From an uncultured Planctomycetia bacterium (GTDB lineage Bacteria; Omnitrophota; Gorgyraeia; 2-02-FULL-51-18): a stretch of DNA of 64,000 nucleotides. The DNA lies in assembly GCA_964642015.1 (NCBI GenBank), contig CAZXLF010000002.1:95678-159677 (forward strand), in the 5' to 3' direction. A program made the translations under genes and the position numbers. The notes beneath the pieces are model-generated. The model was not told the origin of the DNA. It saw only the letters and a list, made by a program, of their open reading frames with translations, and ran no database searches. Below are positions 11,224 through 28,994 of the stretch, piece after piece. Each line of letters starts with the position of its first letter. The stretch's first letter is position 1.

Positions 11224-11227
11224 GGCT

Positions 11228-12034: not shown

Positions 12035-12044
12035 TTATTTTTTT

Positions 12045-13106: not shown

Positions 13107-14257
13107 AAATACTGCACGTTGTTAGAGATCTTGACCCAGAATCAGGAGGGCTGGTCTCTTCGGTGCTTGGTATGGCGACGGCGCAATCGGAATTGGGGCA
13201 TGAAGTTAAGATCGCCGCGACTGATTATGGCCGCGAAAAACCTCGCGCAATTCCGCACGTCTCGTTTTTTTTATTCCATTCCAATTTTGATGAATGGCGA
13301 TGGTCTGCGGAAATGGTCAAACGGTTGCCGTTCCTGATCAAAGAAGCTCATATTGTCCATATACACGGTTTATGGGATTTCCCGGTATTATTGGCCGCGA
13401 TGTTATGCAAAAAAATGCGGAAAACAAACATTCTGACCCCTCACGGCATGTTGCACAAGACATCATTATCCAAAAGCGCATTAAAAAAGAAGGCCTACCT
13501 TAAATTTTTTGGAGACTCCGTTTTAGGACAGCCCAATGCGATCCATTTTACATCCGAGCTTGAACGTCAAAATTCGAAATTGCCTGATGTTTATCGTAAA
13601 AGTTTTGTGGCGCCGTTGGGTATACGCCGTTTGGATTATTATATATTGCCCAATGCCAACGCGTTTAGGCGTAGGTTTCCTGAATTGAAAAGGAGCCGTT
13701 TCATCCTTTATCTTGGCCGGCTTCATCCCAAGAAACATCCTGAAATGCTTATTCAGGCGTTTCATCGGTCGCTTGCTTTGAAAACGAAGATCCTTCTTGT
13801 TATGGCCGGCTCAGGCGAACCGTCTTATGTTCGGGATTTGAAGAAAATGGTCTTGAAATTGCATATGGATCGGAAAGTCGTTTTTACGGGGATGCTTCAT
13901 CACAAAGCTGTCGTGGAAGCGTATTGTGCCGCCGAGATGTTCGTTTTGCCAAGTTCGCAGGAAAATTTTGGAATGTCTGTCATTGAAGCAATGGCGGCTG
14001 GATGCCCGGTCGTTATTAGCGATCTGCTTGATCTGGCATGGGATATTCGGAAAAAGAACGCAGGTATTGTGCACGCGTTGTCTACGGAATCTTTGGCGAG
14101 GGCGATTTTGCAATTAACCAATAACCAAAAACTTTGCAAGCAAATGGGAAAAAATGGCCGCCGGCTTGTTTTAGAAAAGTTTACGTGGGACAAGACGATC
14201 CGCAAGCTGATGATCAACTATTATAAGGTCCTAAAAAAAAGTCCTTATGGCCGTTAA
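13103..14257 (+). CDS. glycosyltransferase family 4
   Basis: MKILHVVRDL... N-terminus; FVLPSSQENFGMSVIEAMAAGCPVVISD E-x7-E region; ATG 13103 overlaps upstream stop (ATGA); track ORF 12986 start judged too early. Confidence 0.7.
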   Translation: MKILHVVRDLDPESGGLVSSVLGMATAQSELGHEVKIAATDYGREKPRAIPHVSFFLFHSNFDEWRWSAEMVKRLPFLIKEAHIVHIHGLWDFPVLLAAMLCKKMRKTNILTPHGMLHKTSLSKSALKKKAYLKFFGDSVLGQPNAIHFTSELERQNSKLPDVYRKSFVAPLGIRRLDYYILPNANAFRRRFPELKRSRFILYLGRLHPKKHPEMLIQAFHRSLALKTKILLVMAGSGEPSYVRDLKKMVLKLHMDRKVVFTGMLHHKAVVEAYCAAEMFVLPSSQENFGMSVIEAMAAGCPVVISDLLDLAWDIRKKNAGIVHALSTESLARAILQLTNNQKLCKQMGKNGRRLVLEKFTWDKTIRKLMINYYKVLKKSPYGR

Positions 14258-15479
14258 GACGCCGGTCGACCGCGGTGTCATGGTTATCCACTCCGGCGTG
14301 CAACATTCGTATCAAACAGCGCTGGCTATGCAAGAGGCCGGGTTATTACAAAAATATATCACGGGTTTTTACTATAAAGATTCAGGTTTACTTTCTCGGC
14401 TGATCAATAGATTGCCGTCCGGCAACGGGATGCGGTGGAAACAAGAACTGTCAAAAAGGAATATGCCAGGTCTCGACCCTCATCGAATCACCAGTTTTAT
14501 GCTCCGGGATCTGATTAACAGCGCTTTTTCGAAGATAAAATTTTTTGAAAAAGCAGTCAAACGTTTTGGCCCATATCATGATTATGTCGATTATTTTCAG
14601 AAGAAAGCGGCCGCGATGGTTCTTCGAAACAGTCCGTCGGCTGTGATTTGCTATGATACCTGCTGTATAAAAGTGTTCGAGGCCGCCGAAAAAGTAGGAG
14701 CCGTCCGTGTATTGGACCAGACTATAGGCCATCTTACATCGGCTATTAAAGTCTTTCGCGAATGCGGTGTTCCTTATGATCTCCCAGAATTTTTATTGGA
14801 ACGTTCAATTCAGGAAATAAAAATGGCTGATCATATATTAGCGGGGTCCGAATACGTACGAAACACTTTGTTATCAGCGGACGTTGATGCGGACAAGATC
14901 ACTGTGTTGCCTTACGGCGTAGACACCGATCAGTTTAAACCTTCTCAAAAGATCCGATCCGAGGATTTCCGTATTTTATTTGTGGGAAGGGTTAATCATA
15001 GGAAAGGAATACAGTACTTGTTCGATGCGTTTGACCGTTTAGATCTCCCCAATTTAAAACTTTTACTTGTAGGACCTATTTGGGGAGGAACGAAATGGCT
15101 TGAACCCTACAAAGGAAGAGTGTTCTATTCATCTCAACTGCCACATAACCAGATCCATGAGGTGTTTCAAAAGGCCGACATTTTTATATTTCCGTCGATC
15201 CATGAAGGATCCTCTCTTACTATATATGAAGCATTAGCTTCCGGGCTTCCAGTGATCACGACGCCCAATGCCGGTTCTGTGATCACGGACGGCCAGGAAG
15301 GTTTCATCGTTCCTGTCGGCGATGTGAATAGCCTCGTAGACAAGATCACTGTTTTGTATCACGATCAAGCGCTGAGAGAAACGATGAGCCGTAAAGCCAG
15401 AGAATGCGCTGAGCGCTTTACATGGAGCCGTTATAGGCAACGTTTGGGCCAGCTTGTCGGGGAGTGGATAAAGAAGTGA
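14247..15479 (+). CDS. glycosyltransferase family 4
   Basis: 410 aa; ILFVGRVNHRKG and FIFPSIHEGSSLTIYEALASGLPVITT motifs. Confidence 0.75.
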   Translation: MAVKTPVDRGVMVIHSGVQHSYQTALAMQEAGLLQKYITGFYYKDSGLLSRLINRLPSGNGMRWKQELSKRNMPGLDPHRITSFMLRDLINSAFSKIKFFEKAVKRFGPYHDYVDYFQKKAAAMVLRNSPSAVICYDTCCIKVFEAAEKVGAVRVLDQTIGHLTSAIKVFRECGVPYDLPEFLLERSIQEIKMADHILAGSEYVRNTLLSADVDADKITVLPYGVDTDQFKPSQKIRSEDFRILFVGRVNHRKGIQYLFDAFDRLDLPNLKLLLVGPIWGGTKWLEPYKGRVFYSSQLPHNQIHEVFQKADIFIFPSIHEGSSLTIYEALASGLPVITTPNAGSVITDGQEGFIVPVGDVNSLVDKITVLYHDQALRETMSRKARECAERFTWSRYRQRLGQLVGEWIKK

Positions 15480-17248
15480 ATATATTGGGCGTTAATGCTT
15501 ATCACGGGGATTCTTCAGCTTGCTTGGTTGTTGATGGACAGCTTGTAGCTGCTGTGGAGGAAGAGCGTTTTCGCAGGGTAAAACATTGGGCAGGTTTTCC
15601 GAGCGAATCGATAAAATACTGTCTCAACTCAACCGGATGCGCGATCGATCAAGTTGATCATATCGCTTTCAACCGCGATCCTAAAGCGAATTTGATGAAA
15701 AAAGTGTTATTTGCCTTTTCGAAGAGACCAAATATGAGTGCGGTTCGGGACCGTATCAAAAATGCTGCCAAGATCCGCGATGCCAAATCAGCGTTTGCGG
15801 ACACTTTGAAGATCAATGCTTCCCGTATTCATGCCAAGTTCCATATGGTCGAACATCACCATACGCATATGAGCAGCGCTTTTCACGTGTCTCCGTTCAA
15901 AAATGCCGCCGTAGTGTCTGTGGACGGATTTGGGGACTTTGTTAGTATGATGTGGGGGATCGGGGATCGAGAAAATATCACGGTCAAAGACCAGGTGATT
16001 TTCCCTCATTCGTTGGGGCTTTTTTATCTTGCGATGACCCAATTTCTGGGATTTCCGAACTACGGAGATGAATACAAACTGATGGGGCTCGCTGCTTACG
16101 GCAAACCCAAATGTTTGAACGGGATGAGGCAAATAGTTCGTTTGATTTCCAGAGGCCGATTTGAGCTGGATCTCGATTTCTTTTTGCATCACTCGGAAGG
16201 AGTTTCGATGATCTGGGAAGATGGCGAGCCGAAGATCGGAAAAGCTTATTCTTTGAAGCTGGAGAAGCTTTTTGGTGTTCCAAGAAAGCCGAATGAGGAG
16301 ATAACACAAGAGCATAAAGATCTCGCCGCTTCTACGCAGCAGATGTATGAAGAGGCTTTCTTTCACATATTGGATCATGTCCAGAGGACTTCTAAGAAGG
16401 AAAAACTATGTTTGGCAGGCGGCTGCGCGATGAACAGCGTGGCTAACGGAAAAATATTTAAAAAAACCAAATTTCGAGACCTCTATGTTCAGCCGGCTGC
16501 CGGTGATGCCGGCGGTGCGATCGGTGCTGCGTTCAGCGTATGGCATGGTAAGCTCAAAAAGCCTCGATCATTCCAGATGAAGCACGCTTATTGGGGGCCA
16601 AGTTTTCTTGATGAGCAGATTAACGAACGGTTGATTGCCAGAGAAAAAGAGCTGAAAGCCGAAAAATGCGAAGTAACGAACATCGATGATATGTCTAAAC
16701 TATGTGAGATTACCGCTAAAGCGATCGCTGATGGAAAAGTGATCGGCTGGTTCCAGGGAAGAATGGAATGGGGGCCTCGCGCGCTCGGAAATCGCAGCAT
16801 CCTTTGTGATCCCCGCCGAGCTGACATGAAACATATTTTGAATTTAAAAATAAAAAGGCGCGAATCATTCCGCCCTTTTGCGCCGTCGATCCTTAGAGAG
16901 AGGGTAGATGAATGGTTCGAGACGGATTATGATGTGCCATTTATGCTTCAGGTCTATATGATCCGCCCGGAAAAAAGAGATCAGATACCGGCTGTTTGCC
17001 ATGTGGACGGTTCGGGTAGATTGCAAACGATCACCGAGGATGAAAATCCAAGGTACTATGCGCTTATTTCGCGGTTTTATAAATTAACAAGAGTTCCGAT
17101 GCTGCTTAATACTTCTTTCAATGAGAACGAGCCCATTGTTTGCAGGCCCGAAGAGGCGCTTGATTGTTTCTTAAGAACAAAAATGGATGTTTTGGTAGTC
17201 GGTAATTATTTTATTTGTAGGAATGAGTCCGTTAAAAAAGTAGAATGA
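15476..17248 (+). CDS. carbamoyltransferase (NodU/CmcH family)
   Basis: NILGVNAYHGDSSACLVVDGQLVAAVEEERFRRVKH N-terminus and HHHTHM/ C-terminal domain typical of NodU-type O-carbamoyltransferases; GTG start 15476 preceded by GGAG, overlapping upstream stop (GTGA). Confidence 0.8.
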   Translation: MNILGVNAYHGDSSACLVVDGQLVAAVEEERFRRVKHWAGFPSESIKYCLNSTGCAIDQVDHIAFNRDPKANLMKKVLFAFSKRPNMSAVRDRIKNAAKIRDAKSAFADTLKINASRIHAKFHMVEHHHTHMSSAFHVSPFKNAAVVSVDGFGDFVSMMWGIGDRENITVKDQVIFPHSLGLFYLAMTQFLGFPNYGDEYKLMGLAAYGKPKCLNGMRQIVRLISRGRFELDLDFFLHHSEGVSMIWEDGEPKIGKAYSLKLEKLFGVPRKPNEEITQEHKDLAASTQQMYEEAFFHILDHVQRTSKKEKLCLAGGCAMNSVANGKIFKKTKFRDLYVQPAAGDAGGAIGAAFSVWHGKLKKPRSFQMKHAYWGPSFLDEQINERLIAREKELKAEKCEVTNIDDMSKLCEITAKAIADGKVIGWFQGRMEWGPRALGNRSILCDPRRADMKHILNLKIKRRESFRPFAPSILRERVDEWFETDYDVPFMLQVYMIRPEKRDQIPAVCHVDGSGRLQTITEDENPRYYALISRFYKLTRVPMLLNTSFNENEPIVCRPEEALDCFLRTKMDVLVVGNYFICRNESVKKVE

Positions 17249-17265
17249 CGCAAAAAGGAGACCAT

Positions 17266-18282
17266 ATGTTCTGGAATAATAAAAAAGTCCTTGTTACCGG
17301 CGGCGCTTCGTTCATCGGTTCTCATTTGGTGGACCTTTTGATCGCCAATGGAGCGAAAGTTCGCGTTGTTGACGATCTGTCGAGTGGTAAATTAAGCAAT
17401 ATTCAGCATTATTTGGATAGCGGGCAATTAGAATTCATTAAAATGGATCTTTTGGAAGCTGGCCAGTGCCACAAAGCGGTAAAAGATATGCAGATTGTTT
17501 TTCATCTGGCTGCAATTCATGGCGGTCGCGGTTATGTGGATCTGCATCAGGCGCTATGTGCGCAAAATTTGGCCATGGATGGCATGCTTTTCAAAGCAGC
17601 CCATGAAAGTGGCGTTGAAAAGGTCGTGTTCGCATCTTCGGGGTGCGTTTATCCAAATCATCTACAGACAGATCCAAGACAGATTCTATATCTTACAGAG
17701 GACATGGTGGGTCCGCCATATGATGCCGATAATATGTATGGCTGGGCCAAGCTGATGGCTGAGATGACGCTCAAGTCATACACGAAGGATTTCGGCATGA
17801 AGTCGGCTTCTTTACGATTTTTCACAGTTTATGGCGAGCGTGGCCATGAAAATCACGCTGTGATCGCGATGATCGCAAAAGCTTTCATTAAAATGGACCC
17901 TTATCCGGTGTGGGGGACTGGGCAGCAGGTCAGAAATTGGACTTATGTCAAAGATATTGTGCGTGGAATGGTGCTTGCCGGCGAAAAGATCAATGACGGA
18001 ACCGCGGTCAATCTTGGCACCATGGAACGCACCAAAGTCGTCGAATGCGCCGAAGAAGTGCTGAGGTATACCAAACATAAAGCGCGCATCCAATTTCAGC
18101 CAGATAAGCCGGTTGGGCCGTTGAACAGAGTAGCCGATAACCACTTGGCCAAGAAACTGCTGGGATGGGAACCCGAAGTTAAATTTATGGACGGATTGAG
18201 GTCTACCATTGATTGGTATTTCAAAACGAAAGATCGCGCGAAGGTCGAGCAAATCTTGGAGAAAATGCTTACCGAGCGGTAG
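17266..18282 (+). CDS. NAD-dependent epimerase/dehydratase (extended SDR)
   Basis: KVLVTGGASFIGSHLVDLL; YGWAK catalytic motif; ATG 17266 with AAAGGAG 6 nt upstream preferred over 17245. Confidence 0.75.
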   Translation: MFWNNKKVLVTGGASFIGSHLVDLLIANGAKVRVVDDLSSGKLSNIQHYLDSGQLEFIKMDLLEAGQCHKAVKDMQIVFHLAAIHGGRGYVDLHQALCAQNLAMDGMLFKAAHESGVEKVVFASSGCVYPNHLQTDPRQILYLTEDMVGPPYDADNMYGWAKLMAEMTLKSYTKDFGMKSASLRFFTVYGERGHENHAVIAMIAKAFIKMDPYPVWGTGQQVRNWTYVKDIVRGMVLAGEKINDGTAVNLGTMERTKVVECAEEVLRYTKHKARIQFQPDKPVGPLNRVADNHLAKKLLGWEPEVKFMDGLRSTIDWYFKTKDRAKVEQILEKMLTER

Positions 18283-18305
18283 ACGGCCTTTTATTCAAAT
18301 TTCCT

Positions 18306-19529
18306 TTGAAGATCCTTCTCATTAACCAGACGTTTTATCCTGACTCAGTTTCGACGAGCCAGCATTTAACCGATCTCGCCGAATGCTTTGTTTCACAGGG
18401 CCACAGCGTCACCGTTATCGCAGGGAGTCATGGCTATGATGATCCTTCGCAGCGTTATCCAAAATTTGAAGAATATCATGGAATCAAGATCTTTCGTCTA
18501 TCCTATACTTGTCTGGGGAAATCTTCCCGCTGGAGAAGGGCTGTTGATTTCTTATCGTTCAATTTGTCTTTATTGATCAAGCTCATATTTGTGCCGTCTC
18601 AGGATATTGTCGTGGGGCTCACATCGCCTCCGCTTGTTGCGGTCTTTGGGAATTTATTTTGCCGTATAAAAGGCGGCTGCTTTGTGTATTGGGTGATGGA
18701 TCTGAATCCGGACGAAGCGATTGCGGCAGGATGGCTCAAAGAACGTTCTTTGTCCGCGAGATTTTTGAAGAGTTTATCGCGTTGGACCTTTCGTCACAGC
18801 AGATTGATCATCGCGCTTGACCGATTTATGAAAAAAAATATTCAGGACAGATACGGGGCCAATGAGGAAAAAATAACCGTGATGCCTCCGTGGGCTCATG
18901 ATGAACATATTCATCCTGTAACGCACGAGAAAAATCCTTTCAGGCATGAACAGGAATTGGGTGATAAATTTGTCGTGATGTATTCGGGGAATCACAGCCC
19001 ATGCCATCCTCTAAAAACTTTATTGGAAAGCAGCGGTTACTATGATCGATTTGATCAGAATGTGCTTTTTTATTTTATCGGCGGAGGAAGCCGTGTTAAA
19101 GAGGTCACGGAATATAAGGAAAGCTGGCAGTTAAAAAACATTGTCCAAATGGGTTATCAGCCCTTGAACACGCTTTCGTTTTCTTTATCCGCGGCTGACG
19201 TGCATGTAGTGGTTATGGGAGAGCCGTTTGTCGGCATAGTTCACCCTTGCAAGTTGTACGGAGTTCTTTCAACGGGAAGGCCGTTCATATTCATCGGGCC
19301 AAAACGCAGCGCCATTGGTGATATTATAAAGGAATCAGGTTTGGGAATTCAGGTTGATCACGGCAATATCGATGATCTTATAAAAGCCATCGAGATGATC
19401 AGGCGCTTGACGGCGATCGAAAAAGAAAACATTCAGGACAAGAGCATAACACTAAAAAATCAACACTTTGGCCACGAATATTTATGCAAAAAACTGGCCC
19501 AAACGATTACGGGTGCATATGGAGCATAG
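18306..19529 (+). CDS. glycosyltransferase family 4 (WcaI-like)
   Basis: N-terminal KILLINQTFYPDSVSTSQHLTDLAECF typical of WcaI-type GT4; start uncertain (TTG 18306 just after upstream stop, or TTG 18213 as in ORF track). Confidence 0.6.
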   Translation: MKILLINQTFYPDSVSTSQHLTDLAECFVSQGHSVTVIAGSHGYDDPSQRYPKFEEYHGIKIFRLSYTCLGKSSRWRRAVDFLSFNLSLLIKLIFVPSQDIVVGLTSPPLVAVFGNLFCRIKGGCFVYWVMDLNPDEAIAAGWLKERSLSARFLKSLSRWTFRHSRLIIALDRFMKKNIQDRYGANEEKITVMPPWAHDEHIHPVTHEKNPFRHEQELGDKFVVMYSGNHSPCHPLKTLLESSGYYDRFDQNVLFYFIGGGSRVKEVTEYKESWQLKNIVQMGYQPLNTLSFSLSAADVHVVVMGEPFVGIVHPCKLYGVLSTGRPFIFIGPKRSAIGDIIKESGLGIQVDHGNIDDLIKAIEMIRRLTAIEKENIQDKSITLKNQHFGHEYLCKKLAQTITGAYGA

Positions 19530-19578
19530 CGAAATGATCAAAAATAAGGTAATATTCTTAATATAATGATAGGTGTCT

Positions 19579-20748
19579 ATGTATATTAGCGAGTATAAAC
19601 TTCTTTTATTGTACGGCGCCGTATTTGCGGTTGCCATTCTATGCAGTTTTGTCCTCTCGGGGATTTTTATAAACCTTTCAAAAAAATATAATTTTATTGA
19701 TTATCCCACCGAAAGAAAAGCGCATCTGAAACCTACGCCTTTACTAGGCGGCGTATCGATATTCTGTTCATTTTGGATCGTGGTGTTGCTGGGAGTTTTA
19801 TCCGCTCAATTTCCGGGTCGCGAGCTTTTAGCTTCATCGTCAGCGCAAAGACTGATCGCCGGAGTCGTTTCCATGTCCAGTAAGATCTTGGGGATATTTG
19901 CCGGCAGTATTGTGATATTGATCGTCGGTCTCATCGATGATCGATTAGATCTCATGCCAATTAAAAAATTTTTTGGCCAATTTCTTGCGGCGCTGATCTT
20001 AATGAAATTAGGCCTGACGATCAGCCTTTTCTATGAATTGGGTATTCTAGGGTACGTCGTGACATTTATTTGGATACTTCTGATCATCAATTCCTTCAAT
20101 TTTATTGATTCATTGGACGGACATTGCGCCGGTGTTGCGCTGATTTCGTCCATCATGTTCTTCTGGATCACACAGATCATCAACCAGCCGATGGTCGGGT
20201 TTTTTCTCATTACTTTTATCGGCGTTTTGATCGGTTTTATGCCGCATAATTTTAAACCGGCCAAAATATTTCTGGGGGACAATGGCAGTTTATTTTTGGG
20301 TTATATGATGGCCTCATTCACGTTGCTCTGCAAGTATCAAGGGCCGCGTTTTTCGCCCGTTACTTTTTTTATCCCGGTATTGATATTTGCGGTGCCTATC
20401 TATGACACTTTATCTGTTGTGGTGGTTCGTACGATCCGCGGCATTCCGTTCTGGACGGGAGACCGTAATCATTTTGCTCATCGACTGGTTAAATTGGGCA
20501 TGAGCGAGCGGGTTGCGGTGATATTTTCATATTTTGTCGAATTGACGATCGGATTGATCGCCTTACTGACGACTCAGGTGACTTATTTTGGCGCCATCCT
20601 GATCGGTTTTGTCGCAGCGTGCATCATCGGCGTGATTGCTTTTCTTGAATATTATGCTTCGCGCAGGATCCGGTTGACCGAACAGCTGGCTACATTGCAT
20701 AGACGTCGGAAAGAAGATATTCAGAAAGAAGAGGAGAAGAAATACTGA
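19579..20748 (+). CDS. MraY/WecA-family polyprenyl-phosphate sugar-1-phosphate transferase (initiating glycosyltransferase)
   Basis: ~390 aa, 10-11 TM; DDRLDL and NSFNFIDSLDG motifs of the MraY/WecA/WbpL superfamily; ATG 19579 with AGGTG RBS. Confidence 0.8.
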   Translation: MYISEYKLLLLYGAVFAVAILCSFVLSGIFINLSKKYNFIDYPTERKAHLKPTPLLGGVSIFCSFWIVVLLGVLSAQFPGRELLASSSAQRLIAGVVSMSSKILGIFAGSIVILIVGLIDDRLDLMPIKKFFGQFLAALILMKLGLTISLFYELGILGYVVTFIWILLIINSFNFIDSLDGHCAGVALISSIMFFWITQIINQPMVGFFLITFIGVLIGFMPHNFKPAKIFLGDNGSLFLGYMMASFTLLCKYQGPRFSPVTFFIPVLIFAVPIYDTLSVVVVRTIRGIPFWTGDRNHFAHRLVKLGMSERVAVIFSYFVELTIGLIALLTTQVTYFGAILIGFVAACIIGVIAFLEYYASRRIRLTEQLATLHRRRKEDIQKEEEKKY

Positions 20749-21752: not shown

Positions 21753-21846
21753 TCTTAGACCTATAGCACTTACAGTACTTACTGGAAGTGCTTTATTTTT
21801 CTAGAGATGATTTACAATAAGCCAAACGCTGGAAGGGTAATTGCTT

Positions 21847-22095
21847 ATGTCCGAAAAGAGTAATCATCTGGTGACCGCAAAAGACATTTCCAAGAAGTAC
21901 AAAGTTCCTTATCCCACCATTAATCATTATACTGATCTGGGTTTCTTGCCGATCATCAAACGTGAAGGCAACAAGCGAATGTATGACGACAAACAGGTCC
22001 GCAACCGCCTGAGCATTATTTCAAAAATGATGAATGAAGGTTATCCGCTTCGGTTGATACGCCGAAAGATCGTCACCAAAGAGGGAGGAGTATGA
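21847..22095 (+). CDS. MerR-family HTH DNA-binding protein (short, no effector domain)
   Basis: 83 aa; VTAKDISKKYKVPYPTINHYTDLGFL ... NKRMYDDKQVRNRLSIISKMMNEGYPL matches MerR N-terminal HTH pattern. Confidence 0.55.
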   Translation: MSEKSNHLVTAKDISKKYKVPYPTINHYTDLGFLPIIKREGNKRMYDDKQVRNRLSIISKMMNEGYPLRLIRRKIVTKEGGV

Positions 22096-22096
22096 G

Positions 22097-22975
22097 ATGA
22101 GCTATTATCGCGTGCTCGGGTTTCAAAAGGAACCGTTTTCTACCAGCCCTGATCCTGAATTCTTTTATTCCTCCCGCGAACACGAGCGGGCACTGACTAA
22201 CGTGCTGATTGAGTTAAGGCTGAAGCGCGGTCTCAGTGTCGTATTAGGCGATGTCGGCACCGGCAAAACAACACTTTCCAGAAAATTGATACAAGATCTT
22301 AAAAATCGTGAGGATTGTCTTTTTCATATCATGCTGGATCCTACCTTTGAAAATAATGTGCTTTTCATACAGTCGCTGGTGAGGAATTTCGGCATGCTTC
22401 CTGAGGCCAACGGAAATGCGCCGATACCTTCAATGACCGATCTGCGTGAACGCTTGGAGCGGTTTTTATTCCAGAAAGGTGTTGTTGAAAATAAAACCGT
22501 GATCCTGATCATCGATGAAGCCCAGAAACTCAGCGAAACCTCTTTAGAGGCATTGAGGGTTTTATTGAATTATGAAACCAATCAATTCAAATTGCTTCAA
22601 CTTGTCTTGCTGGGTCAGATCGAACTTTTATCGACGCTTAAAAGCATCTCTAATTTTCTAGACCGCATCAGTTTTAAGACGCTTTTAAATCCGTTGGATT
22701 ACGCGGAAATGAAAGAGATGATTTATTTTCGCATAGGCCAAGCGGGATATAACTCCAGGATGGATCTTTTTCTGGAAGAGGCGTTGAAAGAGATCTACCA
22801 TTATACGAATGGTTATCCCCGGAAAGTTACTATGCTTTGTCACCGCGCTCTCAAAGAAATGTTAATGCGGAATAAACCGATCGTGGATCGCAGCATTATT
22901 GAGTCCCTGATACAAGATGAGGTGCATGCCGGATGGCAGATGACAGACAGGTTACTCCAGAAAAACAGCTATTAA
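22097..22975 (+). CDS. ExeA/GspA-like AAA+ ATPase (secretion-system associated)
   Basis: LGFQKEPFSTSPDPEFFYSSREHERAL N-terminus and GDVGTGKTTL Walker A, IIDEAQ Walker B - classic ExeA family; strong GGAGG RBS. Confidence 0.75.
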   Translation: MSYYRVLGFQKEPFSTSPDPEFFYSSREHERALTNVLIELRLKRGLSVVLGDVGTGKTTLSRKLIQDLKNREDCLFHIMLDPTFENNVLFIQSLVRNFGMLPEANGNAPIPSMTDLRERLERFLFQKGVVENKTVILIIDEAQKLSETSLEALRVLLNYETNQFKLLQLVLLGQIELLSTLKSISNFLDRISFKTLLNPLDYAEMKEMIYFRIGQAGYNSRMDLFLEEALKEIYHYTNGYPRKVTMLCHRALKEMLMRNKPIVDRSIIESLIQDEVHAGWQMTDRLLQKNSY

Positions 22976-23610
22976 ACCTGATCGAAGGTTCTGAGCAGGG
23001 CGCTTCGGGGCCTTTAGAAAAAGCGCGTATGAAGCGCAGCGCTCTTAGCGCGCTTTCTTTTGGTTCGATCTTCGGACGTTTTGCGTTTTTCAAACGGACG
23101 ACCCAAAAGAAGATCAGCAGTTCAAAGAAATTTTCGATCAGTTTCACAATTGTTAACCGACTGTTGTTCTTAGCGGTGGTCATTTTATTGGCTTATGTGG
23201 TCAGCGATTCGATCGCGTCCGCATTAAACCTGACGCATTTGCCAAATTTAGTGCCTCCAAGAGAAAAGGGAGCGTCGAATCTTGACAATAAAGCTTCCCC
23301 GCTGAAAGAAGAGAGCTATTATCTGCAGAAAGTGAATTCTCGGGATATATTCAAAGAATATAAGGAAGCCGAAACCAAGCAGGAAAAAAAAGAGGTGAGA
23401 CCTGTTGAAGAAAGCGATGCGGTTAAGAACTTATCATTGGTCGGTATTTCTTGGTCCGCTGATCCCGATGTGATCATTGAAGACAAGTCGGCGCAAAGAA
23501 CTTATTTTGTGAAGCGTGGACAGATCGTGGGTAATAATGTGAAAGTGGAGGCTGTATTTAAGGATAAGGTCGTGTTGAGTTATGAAGGGCAGGAGTTTGA
23601 GTTGAGATGA
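22933..23610 (+). CDS. PilP/GspC-like secretin-associated protein (TM anchor + C-terminal beta domain)
   Basis: TM helix LLFLAVVILLAYVV; C-terminal LSLVGISWSADPDVIIEDKSAQRTYFVKRGQIVGNNVKVEAVFKDKVVLSYEGQEFEL resembles PilP/GspC HR domain; start uncertain (overlaps ExeA 3' end). Confidence 0.4.
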   Translation: MADDRQVTPEKQLLNLIEGSEQGASGPLEKARMKRSALSALSFGSIFGRFAFFKRTTQKKISSSKKFSISFTIVNRLLFLAVVILLAYVVSDSIASALNLTHLPNLVPPREKGASNLDNKASPLKEESYYLQKVNSRDIFKEYKEAETKQEKKEVRPVEESDAVKNLSLVGISWSADPDVIIEDKSAQRTYFVKRGQIVGNNVKVEAVFKDKVVLSYEGQEFELR

Positions 23611-25562
23611 TCAAAAATAGAGGTTTCAAAATAGCAACCTTTATCATAATTGCCTTGATGGTTTTGGACCATTCCTTGGTATCCGCCAAAGACGACAAGA
23701 TTGTCATTCCACCGTCGACAACAGACTCTGCCGCACAGAAGAGTCCCGCGAGTGACGAAGGCAATGCCTCCTCCGCCCTCACCTCCAAAGAGGATGTTAA
23801 GGAAGACGTTAAATCTTCTGATAATAATTCAGTCAATAATTCGGTGAGTTCCGCAAATCCGAACGTTACCGCTTCTCAAGACAGCGATAATTCTACTTCC
23901 CCTGAGCCACAAGGTCATTTCACCAGCTTATCAAGCACCACCACGCCTCCTGCTCCATCACAGGAAATACAAGCAGGGAGCCAAGGTTTAGACGAGAAAG
24001 TTTCACTTGATTTACGGAACATCGAAGTCTCGGATGCAATACGTTTTATTGCGCAAAAAGGAGGCCTAAATTTAGCGGTTTCGAAAAATGTTTCAGGCCG
24101 TGTTCAGCTTCTTTTAAATAATGTTCCGGTAAGAGATATTCTGGATATTATCCTGATCACGAATCAACTCGCTTACGAAAAAAGAGGCGACATTTATTAC
24201 ATTATGACGGAAGCGGAGTATAAGGAGAGGTTTGGAAGAAAATTTTCTGACACAAGAAAAATCAAAGTGTTTCGTCTGAAGTATGCGATACCCGATCAGG
24301 CGTTCGCGCTTTTTGAAGTTCTGAAAAGTGAAATAGGGCGCCTTCTTGTAGACCCGGAGTCTGGCACAGTGCTTGTGATGGATTCGCAGGAAAATATCGA
24401 TCGCATGCAAATGGCGCTCGATGGACTCGAGCAAAAAAGAAATATCAAAGTTTACTCATTGAAATATGCGAAAGCCCTTGATATTGAGACCCGGCTCAAA
24501 GCCCAGCTTGATAGTAAAAAGGTCGGATTGATAAGCGCCGATGAGCGTACCAACCAGGTGATTGTAGAAACGCTATCTACGAGAATGGAAGACATTGATA
24601 TGCTGATCGAATCTCTTGATAAAAAGACCAAGGAGGTCTTGATAGAGTCCAAGATCGTCAAGGTTACGTTCAACAATAATTTTGACGCCGAGATCAAGTG
24701 GGATGGGATGGTTTCAAAACTTGCTAAATATGGAACTCAATTCATCGGCAATCATCCTTATGATGCATTGTTCAGAACGGGACAAAGTTTCATCGATAAC
24801 AACAACTACGTCAAGATAACGCCTACAGCTACACCGTCAGCCGGCGCGATGAGTGTGGCAACCAGCAATCTTTTTCTTGGCACGATCACTCCGGGAGGAG
24901 ACGCCTTTGAAACCATGATCAATTTTTTAAAAACAATAGGCGATACTAAAGTTTTATCTACTCCCAGACTTGCTGTCATAAACAATCAGGAGGCTAAGAT
25001 CCACGTGGGCGCAAAAGAAGCTTATGTGACCACGACCACAACTACGGGTCAGACTACGACAACGACCGCTGAAGCCGTTACCTTCGTGGATGTTGGTATA
25101 CAGCTTGCTGTTACTCCAACGATCAATGATGATGGCTTTGTGACAATGAAGATCAAACCTGAGATTTCAAGTGTAGTTGATACGCTTGTCACGCCTAGCG
25201 GCAACAAGATCCCAATTATTGATAGTTCATTGGCCGAAACATCGGTCATGGTTAAAGATGGTGTATCGATTTTGATCGGTGGCTTAAGAAGAGAAGATGT
25301 TGTTGAGACAAAGCAAAGCGTCCCATTTTTAGGTGATCTGCCGATCATTGGAAAACCGTTCACTTCCTCTTCTTCCCAGAAAACGCGCTCAGAGCTATTG
25401 ATTTTGATTACCCCGCACATCATTTACGGTGATGATTTTGTCACTGGAAGCAAAAAGGCCGTGGATAAACCCTATATGAGTTATTCGGATTACGAGTCCG
25501 TAAATCCGATCAATGTCCATAAAGCGCCCGCTGTAAAAGCAACACCTGTGGTGCATACATGA
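23607..25562 (+). CDS. secretin (GspD/PilQ family outer-membrane channel)
   Basis: C-terminal secretin domain VLSTPRLAVINNQEAKIHVG ... VMVKDGVSILIGGL ... SVPFLGDLPIIGKPF ... ELLILITPHII; N-terminal signal peptide; unusual long S/T/N-rich low-complexity N-region and poly-Thr insert. Confidence 0.85.
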   Translation: MIKNRGFKIATFIIIALMVLDHSLVSAKDDKIVIPPSTTDSAAQKSPASDEGNASSALTSKEDVKEDVKSSDNNSVNNSVSSANPNVTASQDSDNSTSPEPQGHFTSLSSTTTPPAPSQEIQAGSQGLDEKVSLDLRNIEVSDAIRFIAQKGGLNLAVSKNVSGRVQLLLNNVPVRDILDIILITNQLAYEKRGDIYYIMTEAEYKERFGRKFSDTRKIKVFRLKYAIPDQAFALFEVLKSEIGRLLVDPESGTVLVMDSQENIDRMQMALDGLEQKRNIKVYSLKYAKALDIETRLKAQLDSKKVGLISADERTNQVIVETLSTRMEDIDMLIESLDKKTKEVLIESKIVKVTFNNNFDAEIKWDGMVSKLAKYGTQFIGNHPYDALFRTGQSFIDNNNYVKITPTATPSAGAMSVATSNLFLGTITPGGDAFETMINFLKTIGDTKVLSTPRLAVINNQEAKIHVGAKEAYVTTTTTTGQTTTTTAEAVTFVDVGIQLAVTPTINDDGFVTMKIKPEISSVVDTLVTPSGNKIPIIDSSLAETSVMVKDGVSILIGGLRREDVVETKQSVPFLGDLPIIGKPFTSSSSQKTRSELLILITPHIIYGDDFVTGSKKAVDKPYMSYSDYESVNPINVHKAPAVKATPVVHT

Positions 25563-26659
25563 TACCGCCTATTTTTGCCAACGTTTTGCAGAAGATAAAA
25601 TGGCGGATGCTGTTGCCTATTGTTTTTTTTGTGATAATCATGCCAACCGTGTCTTTGGTCGGGGCTAATTTTTATAGTCGGTCGAGGGAAAAAAACCTTA
25701 ATTTAAAATATCGTCAGCTTGTAAATAAATACAATAATGTTGCAAAGGTTTATTTAGCTCTTAAAAAGAAATACGAAGATCTGCAGCTTGATAGGGACAA
25801 TGTGCTGAATCAGACAAAAAATCTTCTTTCAGAAAAATCCAAATTTGACGAGATAAAACAAAATGCGGAAGATCTCGAGAAAGCCAACGGAATTTTGACT
25901 ACTCAAAAAGATAAGCTTCACCAGGAGAGCGAGAAGCTTCGTGCGGAACGTCAAATGTTAGCCGAAAATTATAATCGTTTGAAAAAAGAATATGACGAGG
26001 ACATTAATAAGCAAGCTGCGCTGATGACGGAAAATGAAAATTTAAGAGCTGCCTTCCAAAAACAAGTGGAGAGCAGTCCTCAGTATCAGAAAGTGGATGC
26101 GGAAAATAAAGCTCTGAAAACTGATAACCAGACTCTGAAAGATACGATCAAGCGCCTTACGGATAGGCTGAATAAGGCCAATGATCGTATCAAGAAGATC
26201 AACGGCAGAGATTTGAAATTTGGTAAACAGATCGAAGGATACAAAAAGAATCTGAACCATCTGCTTCAGGAAAAGGCGCAGCTCGAGGAAACCAATAAAG
26301 CAATGAATAAGGCGGTCGAGGAGGCGCCGGACAAATTCAGGGATATGGCCGAAGAAAACAAGAGGCTGCTCAGGGAAACGGCAGAAATGCATTATAACTT
26401 AGGAGTTTTTTATACGGAAAATAAGAACTATACGTTAGCTGTTAAGGAATTCCAAAGGGCTTTAGATTTTAATCCGAATAACGCGAAGGTGCACTACAAT
26501 CTGGGGTATTTGCTTTCTGAAGAATTTGATAGGCATGAGGAGGCGATGGCTCATTTCAAGCGCTATTTGGAAATAAACCCGAATTCTAAAGAATCTGATG
26601 AGGTCAGAAATTATATGCTGGTTAGACAGGCTTACGGCGACAAAATCGGTAAGAATTGA
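25559..26659 (+). CDS. coiled-coil protein with C-terminal TPR repeats (pilus/secretion accessory candidate)
   Basis: N-terminal TM; ~250 aa heptad-rich K/E/L/Q sequence; C-terminal YNLGVFY.../AKVHYNLGYLL TPR-like repeats; ATGA overlap with secretin. Confidence 0.55.
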   Translation: MIPPIFANVLQKIKWRMLLPIVFFVIIMPTVSLVGANFYSRSREKNLNLKYRQLVNKYNNVAKVYLALKKKYEDLQLDRDNVLNQTKNLLSEKSKFDEIKQNAEDLEKANGILTTQKDKLHQESEKLRAERQMLAENYNRLKKEYDEDINKQAALMTENENLRAAFQKQVESSPQYQKVDAENKALKTDNQTLKDTIKRLTDRLNKANDRIKKINGRDLKFGKQIEGYKKNLNHLLQEKAQLEETNKAMNKAVEEAPDKFRDMAEENKRLLRETAEMHYNLGVFYTENKNYTLAVKEFQRALDFNPNNAKVHYNLGYLLSEEFDRHEEAMAHFKRYLEINPNSKESDEVRNYMLVRQAYGDKIGKN

Positions 26660-26764: not shown

Positions 26765-27439
26765 ATGAAAAAGTTCTTTTGGGTGATCGTCCTTGTCGGT
26801 TTTTCTATGATGTCGACGGCCCATGCTGATGAGAAAGTCTTAAGTACGGTAACAGCTCCGTCAGCCAAAAAAGATCCGGCCGCTGATGCCAAGCGAGAAG
26901 AAATGATAAAAATGATCGAGAAAAAGAAAGTGGATCTTAACGGTACAGAGTGGAAGGTGACTCTGACACCCGCGGATCACAAGGAAAAAGCAGAAGAAGA
27001 TGTGCTTACTTTTCAGAATGGACAAGTTGTGTCAAAGAACTTTTTAGAACGTGGTTTTACGGCCACTAATTATACGATATCTATTCCGGAAGGTAGTGAC
27101 ATAGGTGTTTGGGAAACGATGCAAACGAGTTCTAATTCGAAAGAGGGTGTCATATTTATTCGCGGTGAATGGAAGGATGACCAAATGCGAGGCATAGTTA
27201 GTCAGCAAGTAGAAGGCGGCAAATCAAGCAAGGATTATAATTTTAAGACAACTTCTAAAGCAAAGGTTTCGCCCTCGACAACCAAGTCTGAAGATAAGAA
27301 AACTGAGACTGGGCAGAGTAACGCTGCAGAAGGAGATGTTCAAGAGGACACCCAAAAGACAGCCGCTTCTACAAATGCGCTAGTCAGTTTAGAGTCATCT
27401 TCGGATGCAAAGAAACCGTCCAAAAATACTCATAAATAG
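26765..27439 (+). CDS. secreted hypothetical protein (signal peptide; ~110-aa domain shared with C-terminus of 27774..28994 product)
   Basis: N-terminal signal peptide FFWVIVLVGFSMMSTAHA; GGAGG RBS; internal paralogy to downstream gene. Confidence 0.5.
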   Translation: MKKFFWVIVLVGFSMMSTAHADEKVLSTVTAPSAKKDPAADAKREEMIKMIEKKKVDLNGTEWKVTLTPADHKEKAEEDVLTFQNGQVVSKNFLERGFTATNYTISIPEGSDIGVWETMQTSSNSKEGVIFIRGEWKDDQMRGIVSQQVEGGKSSKDYNFKTTSKAKVSPSTTKSEDKKTETGQSNAAEGDVQEDTQKTAASTNALVSLESSSDAKKPSKNTHK

Positions 27440-27493: not shown

Positions 27494-27522
27494 TTGACAA
27501 AGGAGTAAATATCAGGTATCTT
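27494..27522 (+). promoter_or_regulatory. candidate promoter TTGACA (27494-27499) - 17 nt - TATCTT (27517-27522)
   Basis: consensus -35 with correct spacing; preceded by AAATAGGTCTAT motif also found in promoter at 21.7 kb. Confidence 0.4.
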
Positions 27523-27528
27523 TGAATA

Positions 27529-27685
27529 GGATATTTGAATCTTTGATAGATTTGTTTAATCAGTCGAAAAGAGCAAACCTAAGGAAACTTAGGGACGCAA
27601 AGCCGTGCGTCCGCCGAAGATTTTGGCGGATTGGCAGGTTGCCGCGAAAATTGATCCAGGCACGGTTGGTTGCCTGGTTTTTTTT
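27529..27685 (+). ncRNA. candidate small structured RNA / attenuator leader (promoter-to-terminator unit, ~155 nt)
   Basis: series of perfect hairpins: CCTAAG-gaaa-CTTAGG (27577-27594), GGACGCA-aagcc-GTGCGTCC (27594-27613), CCGCC-n9-GGCGG (27610-27630), ending in terminator hairpin + U8. Confidence 0.3.
27656..27685 (+). terminator. rho-independent terminator: CCAGGCA-cggttggt-TGCCTGG followed by T8
   Basis: 7-bp GC-rich perfect stem and 8-T run read directly at 27656-27685. Confidence 0.5.
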
Positions 27686-27773
27686 GTTTAAACGCAAAAG
27701 TGCCAGGCACGAAGGGCTTGGAAATAAGGTTAGTACCTGGCACTTTGACATAAATGGGGCTGTAAATCAGTAA

Positions 27774-28994
27774 ATGCCGAGGTTACCAAGGATCCACGTA
27801 GAATCAGCGATCTATTACGTAACTTCGCGGGCCCTGCGCGACCAGGAAATATTTAAGGAAAAGGCGGATTATCAAATGTATATTGAGCTTCTGAGCAAAT
27901 ATAAAAGCCAGCATAAATTCCTGCTTTATTCCTTTTGCTTATTGCCCGACCGCTTGAGCCTGCTGATAGAAACCAGCGATGATGCCACAATATCTGAGAT
28001 CATGCATGACTTGAACTCTCTTTACACGAAATATTTCAATGGGCGATATCAAAAGAGGGGGCATCTTTTTGAATCACGTTTCCGATCGGTCCTAGTGGAA
28101 AAACAGAATTTCCTTTTAAAAATGACACGCTTCATCCACCAATTACCCGGCGATTCTTTTAAAAATTATCCTTACACGAGCTACCATTTTTACGTTCAAC
28201 GCCCCGAAAGCGTGCCCGCGATCGATCTGACAGCGGAAGTCAGAACAGTCAAGGAATTCTTGGTCCAGTTGAGCGATCCTGATGCTTACGAAAAATATTG
28301 CCTCCAGGGCGATAAGAGCGAGATAGAAGAGTTAGCCAAAAGTCTAAAGCGCGGATCCGTGCTGGGATCCGACACATTTACCGCAGAAGTCCGCAATCGG
28401 ATCAAAGTGCATACCGAAAGCCAAAAGGAAACATCGGCCGGTGTTCAAGGATTAGGAAGATCTCAAAGAGTCGTTATTATGATGATCGGAGCCTTAGTGC
28501 TTGTTGCCACAGCTTCCTCGATCTACCTCTATATAAGCAAGACGTCGTTGGAAAATAAATATGCGCAGCTTCTGTCACAGAAAGAAGCCGAGTTCAAAGA
28601 GAAGATAAAATTTGAAAATCGAAATCCATTAGCGCCGACAGATCTTGAAGGGACCGAATGGATGATTGACCTGGTTCCTTTAAACGGGGATAAGAAAGAA
28701 ACTATTAAAGATAAAATATCTTTTAAACTGAGACACGTCACATCAGAACATTTCTCCTCCTTGGGTTTCAGCGGCACTAATTATTCTGTAACTTCAAATT
28801 CAAAAGGACTTGTTGTTTGGGAAACGATCCAATCGACGCCTAACGGTGACAGCCTCAGTTGGCGAGGTGACTGGGAGGGGGATGCAATGAAGGGAATTTT
28901 AAGTGTGCATTCTGCCGGCAAAGAAGCACAAGATTTTTCGTTTTTCAGCGTGAAATGGAGCTATCTGCATGAAGCTAAACAGTCAGAAAAATAA
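27774..28994 (+). CDS. fusion protein: N-terminal degenerate IS200/IS605-like (HUH/Y1 transposase-fold) domain + TM helix + periplasmic domain paralogous to 26765..27439 product
   Basis: PRIHVESAIYYVTSRALRD ... YQKRGHLFESRF resemble IS200 TnpA/RAYT, but HUH position reads DRLSLL (His lost) and catalytic Tyr region is GHLFESRF; TM VVIMMIGALVLVATASSIYLYI; C-terminal GTEW...GFSGTNY...VWETIQ...RGDWEGDAMKGILS aligns with upstream protein. Confidence 0.55.
   Translation: MPRLPRIHVESAIYYVTSRALRDQEIFKEKADYQMYIELLSKYKSQHKFLLYSFCLLPDRLSLLIETSDDATISEIMHDLNSLYTKYFNGRYQKRGHLFESRFRSVLVEKQNFLLKMTRFIHQLPGDSFKNYPYTSYHFYVQRPESVPAIDLTAEVRTVKEFLVQLSDPDAYEKYCLQGDKSEIEELAKSLKRGSVLGSDTFTAEVRNRIKVHTESQKETSAGVQGLGRSQRVVIMMIGALVLVATASSIYLYISKTSLENKYAQLLSQKEAEFKEKIKFENRNPLAPTDLEGTEWMIDLVPLNGDKKETIKDKISFKLRHVTSEHFSSLGFSGTNYSVTSNSKGLVVWETIQSTPNGDSLSWRGDWEGDAMKGILSVHSAGKEAQDFSFFSVKWSYLHEAKQSEK

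Follow-up and report, generated by a model that had tools for sequence, protein, structure and literature searches.

A domesticated, membrane-anchored RAYT-type domain in the secretin and giant-protein locus of Omnitrophota

We describe here a gene of the Omnitrophota in which a transposase-type domain forms the head of a membrane protein. The gene lies in a stretch of 64,000 nucleotides (positions 95,678 to 159,677 of contig CAZXLF010000002.1, assembly GCA_964642015.1; the window in what follows) from an uncultured bacterium deposited as Planctomycetia and placed in the Omnitrophota by GTDB. It codes for a bitopic protein with a head like that of the repetitive extragenic palindrome (REP)-associated tyrosine transposases (RAYTs), followed by a transmembrane helix, a coiled helix and a beta-barrel (Table 1). 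The gene derives from that of a stand-alone protein of the RAYT type (TnpA-Y1), is domesticated and not mobile, and has a fixed place in the Omnitrophota locus that encodes a secretin and a giant surface protein. As to its function we favor, with a probability of about 0.4, a membrane adaptor or regulator that would serve the giant-protein operon without catalysis and whose head would bind structured nucleic acid, a reading drawn from sequence comparisons and predicted structures.

Residues 22–121 match the Pfam family PF01797 (Y1_Tnp) with 32.8 bits against a gathering cut-off of 23 (homologs score 35–45 bits), and the nearest NCBIfam model is the RAYT equivalog REP_Tyr_transpos (NF047646), at 47.3 bits under its cut-off of 80. 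A single-sequence phmmer search of the PDB with the protein matched no transposase, and the family profile gave Escherichia coli TnpA-REP (4er8) as its sole head-domain match, a weak one (E 0.029), so that a fold search was needed to establish the Y1 relationship. An AlphaFold2 model built from 52 homologs has a mean pLDDT (predicted local distance difference test) of 89 and shows the RRM-like HUH fold with a C-terminal nucleophile helix. Its top PDB match in Foldseek is again 4er8 (E 1.4e-6, TM-score 0.68 on the target), with the IS200, IS608 and ISDra2 TnpA structures next at ranks 2–30; 4er8, 2f4f, 2xma and 2vjv all have a probability of 1.00. Matches to Thg1-like and anticalin structures in the same search were set aside as generic RRM/palm-like and barrel similarity. 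An earlier note on this DNA, made from its letters alone, had claimed a relationship to IS200-like Y1 transposases, and both the Pfam score and the best fold match bear it out. We note that the deposited protein (P0001, 372 aa) begins at M35 (position 27876) and loses an N-terminus, MPRLPRI..., that is kept in all homologs; this comparison supports the 406-residue start at 27774 over the one at 27876.

The protein has one hydrophobic segment (Kyte-Doolittle mean 2.27), and behind it come a long helix and an all-beta domain of ~110 residues. The last 122 residues modeled alone give an eight-stranded up-and-down barrel with a pLDDT of 92 and a predicted TM-score of 0.82. Its resemblance to lipocalins, anticalins and small barrels of the PDB is weak (Foldseek, every E > 1e-3), and we call the modeled domain lipocalin-like by shape, with no claim of lipocalin membership. 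The barrel aligns with the middle of the 224-residue protein encoded just upstream, at 35% identity (E 3e-19). Because this paralog is secreted, an N-terminal signal peptide is absent from the fusion and the transmembrane helix is single, we infer that the topology is N-in/C-out and the barrel periplasmic. The helix and the ~110-residue domain that the earlier note described thus hold up as one transmembrane segment and a confidently modeled barrel, the periplasmic placement being a predicted one.

In the family-profile alignment to 4er8, H59-M-H61 of TnpA-REP falls on R60-L61-S62 of the protein (within PDRLSLL), the nucleophile Y115 falls on F120 (within TRFIHQLP), and the column of the polar ligand four residues after the tyrosine (N or Q) is occupied by L124. 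Y115F is a published, catalytically dead mutant of TnpA-REP (PMC8266576). By this alignment the catalytic center of the window protein is gone, with all three metal ligands and the nucleophile replaced. The dead active site and the domesticated fold proposed earlier are therefore confirmed for this protein, with two corrections: the tyrosine region had been placed at HLFESRF, which is a conserved beta-strand 20 residues short of the true column, and the family as a whole is not uniformly dead. Among 146 non-redundant fusions the residues corresponding to H60, H62, Y120 and N124 are kept in 58, 72, 59 and 44, respectively; H60, H62 and Y120 are kept together in 35 and are all lost in 50. Residue 62 is highly variable across the fusions (E, Y, N, S, Q and others), and residue 60 is mostly R in the degenerate clades. 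A neighbor-joining tree rooted with intact stand-alone proteins requires at least 16 changes of state at H60, 21 at H62, 20 at Y120 and 10 at N124, the tree being approximate and the counts indicative. They point to an intact ancestral state with intact basal members, and to losses that would be mosaic, repeated and independent.

Other parts of the head are strictly kept. D32, S74, M77, Y84, K86, N89, G96, R102, E109 and H122 are invariant, as are W296, D313, F317, W349, W363, G374 and F390 in the barrel region, and the core is basic in all catalytic classes (pI ~9.4, net charge +6), near to the stand-alone enzymes. Erosion of catalysis together with a basic scaffold that is kept would be the signature of a fold retained for binding once catalysis had become dispensable. 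The basal clades retain H-x-H, Tyr and Asn at just 37–47% sequence identity, which may reflect activity there or a structural role of the metal site. That conservation argues for selection in those clades, and is one point for the view that the protein is still an enzyme, a membrane-tethered HUH nuclease nicking or joining single-stranded DNA at the hairpins of its leader (see below) or at REP-like sites, for example so that such DNA can leave or enter by way of the secretin, or to bring about phase variation of the giant gene. The hairpins of conserved sequence 5′ of the gene do recall a REPtron, and the locus has a secretin. However, R60, S62, F120 and L124 replace all catalytic residues in the window protein, the phenylalanine being the classical dead mutant, and for this protein the sequence refutes the proposal; the 50 of 146 members that have none of the three residues keep their full length and their synteny, and the window has no repeated REP-like elements and a single copy of the gene. 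We regard a surviving nuclease as very unlikely.

Residues 1–215 are colinear with stand-alone proteins of ~220 aa from Thermodesulfobacteriota and Elusimicrobia, including the serine motif behind the core and LGSxxF. From this colinearity it appears that a whole soluble Y1 protein of ~215 residues was captured as the cytoplasmic head of a bitopic inner-membrane protein, and that the transmembrane helix, the long helix and the lipocalin-like barrel were added to it.

A word-indexed search found 220 relatives (E ≤ 0.001), nearly all of them over 97–99% of the query and at 34–75% identity, and the only names that databases give to them are 'transposase' or 'RayT'. With phmmer against 1.84 billion representatives there are 210 clusters (50% identity) at E ≤ 1e-30, which constitute the fusion family, and 16,098 at E ≤ 1e-3, which make up the wider Y1 family. 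When a single genome of each GTDB species was scanned with a 15-sequence family alignment as query, 66 loci were obtained. Matches that span the head and the transmembrane helix come from metagenome-assembled genomes (MAGs) and single-amplified genomes of Omnitrophota, or from bins labeled Planctomycetia, PVC (Planctomycetes-Verrucomicrobia-Chlamydiae) or Eisenbacteria and one 'Promethearchaeota' contig; the bins with other labels that carry the same locus are probably mislabeled or mis-binned. Matches in Thermodesulfobacteriota, Elusimicrobia, Desantisbacteria and Syntrophaceae are to the head only, in stand-alone proteins of 160–245 aa. The distribution that the earlier note had asked about is thus some 210 clusters, syntenic and almost only in Omnitrophota. 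The full Omnitrophota-type locus is also seen on contigs deposited as Eisenbacteria, Promethearchaeota (archaeon CR_4) and Planctomycetia/Planctomycetales (L013, L059 and others), where mis-binning or coarse naming is probably the cause of the odd labels rather than transfer.

The order of genes is the same in intact and degenerate clades and across ~50 species: MerR-like helix-turn-helix (HTH) protein, ExeA/GspA-like AAA protein, GspC/B-like protein, secretin, coiled-coil/tetratricopeptide repeat (TPR) protein, variable inserts, secreted barrel, the fusion gene, one or more small transmembrane proteins, and a giant open reading frame that runs off the locus. In nearly all loci whose flank is long enough, a giant frame lies 3′ of the fusion gene. 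The secreted paralog is found upstream of nearly all fusions that have a barrel, and none of the six barrel-less loci with a sufficient upstream flank has it. A barrel-less clade (L042, L043, L045, L046, L048 and L053) has shorter fusions, of 320–345 aa, that consist of the RAYT-like head and the transmembrane helix; synteny from secretin to giant gene and the riboswitch described below are retained, and the secreted paralog is in none of them. One MAG (nzgw292) holds two complete copies of the locus with secretin block, barrel, riboswitch and fusion (L006 and L014), which shows that duplication of the whole system is possible. A locus resembling a type II secretion system upstream of Omnitrophota giant genes has already been described (bioRxiv 10.1101/2023.11.21.568195); neither that report nor the Nature Microbiology survey (PMC10066038) mentions the fusion protein or the riboswitch.

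This fixed position bears directly on mobility. Elements of the IS200/IS605 group are short and multicopy, with subterminal hairpins at both ends and often a tnpB gene, and the fusion gene shows none of this: there is no tnpB in its neighborhood within the window and no structure at its 3′ end, which overlaps the next gene. It is instead like a RAYT in being single copy (one in the window), vertically inherited and fixed in position. The 64 kb hold no REP-like repeats, all families of direct repeats being inside the giant gene, and no repeated palindromes outside it; the 5′ hairpins share a CCAGGCA core and occur in the leader only. The claim in the earlier note that the gene is not a mobile element therefore stands, and its statement that no hairpins flank the gene stands in part, since hairpins are present on the 5′ side and belong to a riboswitch platform and leader rather than to insertion sequence ends. 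A decaying IS200/IS605 or REPtron remnant that landed by chance beside the giant gene, in loci that would be transposase-rich mobile cargo, is suggested by the database names and by a preprint that counts flanking transposase genes as mobile DNA (bioRxiv 10.64898/2026.06.07.730766). A remnant is nevertheless not expected to be an intact frame of 406 codons with relatives at 34–75% identity over their full length in more than 200 proteins, in the same position and gene order in ~50 species, with no tnpB partner, no 3′ end structure and an overlap with the next gene, nor to have an added helix and barrel under conservation (the seven invariant residues from W296 to F390). Full-length conservation and fixed synteny refute this explanation, to which we give almost no weight.

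The 334-nt spacer 5′ of the fusion gene houses a cyclic di-GMP (c-di-GMP) aptamer, in which a canonical GAAA tetraloop is present along with the blocks GCAAAC and GACGCAAAGCC; besides RF01051 (Table 1), the variant model RF03167 scores the same aptamer at 56.1 bits. The riboswitch, which the earlier note does not mention, tells more about the biology of the gene than any other feature. With a covariance model built from three instances, the aptamer was located 81–430 nt 5′ of the fusion gene in 46 of the 54 species loci surveyed; in four others it lies past the fusion gene and before the giant gene, and in the last four it was not found. Among 56 sequences, 16 of 23 pairs have compensatory double changes and 95.9% of cells are paired, in an alignment that was fitted to the model and is hence biased towards the structure; with the partner slid, 29–45% are paired, and none of 500 shuffles reaches the observed level. 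A terminator follows the aptamer in 40 of the 43 loci examined, and most of the stems are of the CCAGGCA/TGCCTGG type. By sequence and predicted structure the element is a bona fide c-di-GMP-I riboswitch, and it would gate, through c-di-GMP, a predicted transcription unit that usually starts with the fusion gene and closes with the giant gene. The order of this unit in the window is aptamer, terminator, leader motif, fusion gene, small transmembrane protein and giant protein. The fusion gene had been taken to lie directly upstream of the giant gene, a position that is in fact occupied by the 276-aa gene, which overlaps both. A TTGACA at 27745, between the leader motif and the ATG, was considered as a further promoter and on inspection lacks an acceptable -10 box.

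Past the terminator, at a distance of 12–20 nt, lies AAAGTGCCAGGCAC, a conserved element of the leader that often has TTT behind it; it is palindromic and able to form a 7-bp hairpin. The exact 11-mer GTGCCWGGCAC is present in one to three copies in ~45 loci and is confined to the operon leader; in the window there is a copy at 27700 and a second, with one mismatch, at 27733. In most loci it lies after the terminator and 20–70 nt before the start codon. A CCACGCA variant tracks the barrel-less protein clade, the motif stays 3′ of the riboswitch where the riboswitch is downstream of the fusion gene, and it is present in three loci with no detectable riboswitch. No Rfam family matches it. Two ordinary explanations were considered. 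The segment CTGGCAC is like the -24 box of a sigma-54 promoter, and this was rejected as there is no TTGC -12 element at the right spacing and the distance from the motif to the start codon is often just ~25 nt. A role as a mere alternative pairing partner of the terminator is made less likely by a clade of five loci (L028, L029, L030, L033 and L067) in which the terminator stem is CCAGCCAGG/GGCTGG and the motif is kept; the element does not co-vary with the terminator stem. Candidates for a protein that binds the motif are the HUH-fold head, a binder of single-stranded DNA hairpins by ancestry, and the conserved MerR-like protein.

In the reading that we favor, the protein would work through binding and not cutting, its basic HUH-fold head having retained the ancestral capacity to hold structured single-stranded nucleic acid. 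The best candidate for what it holds would be the leader hairpin of its own operon, AAAGUGCCAGGCAC, as RNA or as non-template DNA. The periplasmic barrel would pair with the secreted paralog, or with the secretin and giant-protein machinery. Once the riboswitch has made its choice in response to c-di-GMP, the protein, acting in cis from the membrane, could link giant-gene expression to the condition of the export apparatus. A bolder version, which we think improbable, is that the dead head binds AAAGUGCCAGGCAC in single-stranded non-template DNA or nascent RNA and so pins the transcribing giant-gene operon to the inner membrane beside the secretin system, as an ops/RfaH-like or 'transertion' anchor that is c-di-GMP-gated. 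Were it true, it would enable transcription, translation and export of the product of a 24–100 kb gene, and would make this the first transposase fold known to have been put to use as a transmembrane adaptor for nucleic acid.

Several points weigh against an adaptor or regulator that binds nucleic acid. About a quarter of the family has an intact HUH motif and tyrosine, and the ancestral, perhaps current, function there could be catalytic. The invariant residues of the core may reflect fold stability or a protein partner, and the extension domain (residues 131–215) is acidic. The link between head and leader motif is circumstantial: in five loci (L001, L018, L023, L002 and L032) the motif accompanies the riboswitch and the giant gene and not the fusion gene, the palindrome could equally well be bound by the conserved MerR-like protein that is encoded first in the locus, and where the motif is next to a -35 box, in three loci, it looks like an ordinary double-stranded DNA operator. 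The topology, too, is one that we infer.

In these three loci (L041, L051 and L052) the motif abuts a TTGACA-17-TATACT promoter, and this is part of the case for a one-component transducer of the ToxR kind, in which the barrel and its soluble paralog (the latter ToxS-like) sense a ligand or contact with prey and the head binds the palindrome AAAGTGCCAGGCACTTT as double-stranded DNA, switching transcription of the giant operon. The protein has the topology of a bitopic regulator, with a nucleic-acid-binding type of head inside, one transmembrane helix and a periplasmic fold of a ligand-binding type; the palindrome is sited in the leader of the operon, and HTH or DnaA-C-like C-terminal domains occur in stand-alone relatives that belong to subclass 2.1 (PMC6006769). 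On the other hand, the protein matches no HTH or winged-HTH family in Pfam or NCBIfam, the region of residues 131–225 is acidic and shows neither an HTH nor another double-stranded DNA-binding domain, Y1 HUH domains bind single-stranded DNA hairpins, the motif is mostly in the transcribed leader past the terminator, which is an odd spot for an activator site, and the MerR-like protein is a more conventional candidate. We consider such a transducer unlikely.

It is possible, if somewhat doubtful, that no nucleic acid is involved and the dead HUH head is a protein-protein module, for example one that docks a cytoplasmic ATPase or chaperone, in a structural inner-membrane subunit of the secretin export or assembly machine with a GspL/PilN-type layout. 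A scaffold of this sort would fit a gene whose neighbors encode structural parts of a secretion system and whose translation is coupled to that of the small transmembrane and giant proteins. The secreted paralog adjoins it, with barrel and paralog either co-occurring or both missing, the catalytic residues are dispensable, the locus has a MerR-like regulator of its own, and ExeA-like and MshE-type ATPases are encoded nearby. The core, however, keeps a strongly basic character and all of the non-catalytic family invariants of DNA-binding enzymes, and there is no likeness to known platform proteins, the sole NCBIfam match, over the transmembrane and coiled segment, being to FliL (E 0.0025). Moreover, the riboswitch at times lies after the fusion gene, and strict stoichiometric co-expression is thus not universal. 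We retain the nucleic-acid-binding adaptor or regulator as our preferred reading.

The features of the window are collected in Table 1. The plus strand carries every gene of the window. The MerR-like protein at the start of the conserved block is a candidate regulator of the locus. The 276-aa transmembrane protein has no family match in Pfam or NCBIfam, and the PADLOC defense models match neither the fusion gene nor its neighbors. The repeats of the giant gene, of ~95 aa (285 nt), have weak matches to Kre9/KNH immunoglobulin (Ig)-like domains; three super-repeats of ~2.1 kb lie at ~36.9–43.1 kb, and the C-terminal region is coiled. Ahead of the secretin cluster, at 8973–20748, there are genes for glycosyltransferase, methyltransferase (FkbM), carbamoyltransferase and epimerase enzymes of surface polysaccharide synthesis. 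Beyond the giant gene, the interval 55675–62791 codes for the delta, alpha, gamma and beta subunits of an F-type ATP synthase, then for a protein with only an MshEN domain and for an MshEN-T2SSE-PilZ ATPase, and agrees with the co-location of F-ATPase and type 4 pilus genes reported in Omnitrophota (PMC10066038). The last part, at 60142–62791, supplies c-di-GMP receptors in the form of MshEN domains and of PilZ on the T2SSE ATPase.

Table 1. Coordinates of the fusion gene, its upstream elements and the neighboring genes in the window
Feature	Position	Strand	Remarks
MerR-like HTH protein, 84 aa	21841-22095	+	directly 5′ of ExeA-like gene; position kept in at least 19 of 28 loci
ExeA/GspA-like AAA protein	22097-22975	+	upstream conserved block (21841-26659)
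GspC/B-like protein	22933-23610	+	upstream conserved block
Secretin	23607-25562	+	upstream conserved block
Coiled-coil/TPR protein	25559-26659	+	upstream conserved block
Secreted barrel paralog	26765-27439	+	224 aa; cleavable signal peptide ending AHA/DEK
Candidate sigma-70-like promoter, TTGACA-17-TATCTT	27494-27522	+	consensus match only; 5′ of riboswitch
c-di-GMP-I riboswitch aptamer (RF01051)	27562-27646	+	64.2 bits against a gathering cut-off of 35
Intrinsic terminator, CCAGGCA-loop-TGCCTGG + T8	27656-27685	+	hairpin 27656-27677; expression platform
Leader element AAAGTGCCAGGCAC	27697-27746	+	two copies; hairpin with 17-nt arms (27697-27713, 27730-27746)
Fusion gene	27774-28994	+	406 aa; bitopic membrane protein: RAYT-like head, transmembrane helix, coiled helix, barrel
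Y1 HUH (RAYT-like) core	27774-28163	+	aa 1-130; pI 9.3
HUH position, R60-L-S62	27951-27959	+	profile alignment to 4er8, translation
Tyr column, F120	28131-28133	+	profile alignment to 4er8, translation
Acidic helical extension	28164-28418	+	aa 131-215; motifs PYSSY and LGSxxF; common to stand-alone ~220-aa Y1 proteins of other phyla
Single transmembrane helix VVIMMIGALVLVATASSIYLYIS	28470-28538	+	aa 233-255
Eight-stranded lipocalin-like beta-barrel	28641-28973	+	aa 290-400; predicted to be periplasmic
Small single-transmembrane protein, 276 aa	28969-29799	+	26-nt overlap with fusion gene, 4-nt overlap (ATGA) with giant gene
Giant gene, 8096 aa	29796-54086	+	N-terminal signal-like segment; ~95-aa Ig-like repeats

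The fusion represents a new HUH/Y1 architecture, in which a cytoplasmic RAYT-type head is combined with a transmembrane helix and a periplasmic barrel, and the family offers a natural series from intact to dead within one orthologous, syntenic set that should be useful for the study of transposase domestication. It also corrects an annotation trap. The labels 'transposase' and 'RayT' suggest that giant-gene loci are mobile, and the 2026 preprint cited above counts the 'transposase' genes beside Omnitrophota giant genes as a sign of neighborhoods rich in mobile DNA; the fusion genes are fixed components of the locus, and some of the flanking 'transposases' of that study may belong to the non-mobile fusion family. 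The riboswitch, terminator and leader element in front of the operon in most species give a first concrete handle on the control of Omnitrophota giant genes, and make the timing and manner of giant-protein production directly testable. The secreted barrel, fusion, small transmembrane and giant proteins define a set of conserved genes for the apparatus that has been proposed to serve predation or adhesion in these uncultured, ultra-small bacteria.

The closest known structure, that of E. coli TnpA-REP (YafM), shares with the head the HUH strand, the GHLFxxRF-type strand and then a helix bearing YIHxNP, and the fusion gene is also single copy and fixed in the chromosome, a hallmark of 'domesticated' RAYTs (PMC5581495). 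It differs in that HUH, Tyr and Tyr+4 are replaced and the RAYT model scores below its cut-off, in having no REP/REPIN population in the window, in the extension of ~85 aa, the helix and the barrel that are added, and in its place within a secretion operon behind a riboswitch. Stand-alone TnpA-Y1 proteins of class 2, of ~220 aa and REP-less (e.g. L060, L065 and L068), are colinear with residues 1–215 (MPR..., D-Y, GHL(F/W)xxR(F/Y)K, PYSSY, LGSxxF) and have the same basic core and acidic extension; they are the probable ancestors of the cytoplasmic module by this resemblance, and unlike it are soluble, keep HUH, Tyr and NP, and are found in other phyla and contexts. RAYTs that have been domesticated, and Y1 subclasses that lack REPs and carry additional C-terminal domains, are already known (PMC5581495, PMC6006769), whereas the TnpA-Y1 classification of Quentin et al. 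2018 (PMC6006769) lists neither a form anchored in the membrane nor one fused to a barrel, and its text contains neither 'membrane' nor 'transmembrane'. In the literature searched we found no membrane-anchored, barrel-fused and largely dead Y1 form in a secretion and giant-protein operon behind a c-di-GMP riboswitch.

The IS200, IS608 and ISDra2 TnpA proteins are alike in their RRM-like HUH fold and, by score, in membership of PF01797. The fusion gene lacks their subterminal hairpins at both ends, tnpB partner, multiple copies, Y-x-x-x-Q motif and catalytic residues, is three times longer, and has as its 5′ hairpins a riboswitch terminator and a leader element conserved in the phylum. Regulators of the ToxR/ToxS type have a cytoplasmic head, one transmembrane helix and a periplasmic domain, with a separately encoded, lipocalin-like periplasmic partner. 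The layout of the fusion and its paralog is similar, but the head has an HUH fold and not an OmpR-type winged helix, and there is no relationship by sequence or profile. The c-di-GMP-I (GEMM-I) riboswitch controls adhesin and pilus operons, with examples in Vibrio and Clostridioides. The Omnitrophota unit resembles these in its aptamer with terminator, its surface or adhesion type of product and the MshEN and PilZ receptors nearby, and departs from them in that the first regulated gene encodes a transposase-fold membrane protein and the operon includes a 24-kb gene, an association that we did not find in the literature searched. A further parallel is with the TldR repressors derived from TnpB, dead transposon nucleases that are reused for binding and whose gene is fixed in a host operon; there the fold is RuvC and here HUH, and the Omnitrophota protein is anchored in the membrane and has no guide RNA. 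Its head should be described as a RAYT-derived pseudo-enzyme domain and not as a transposase.

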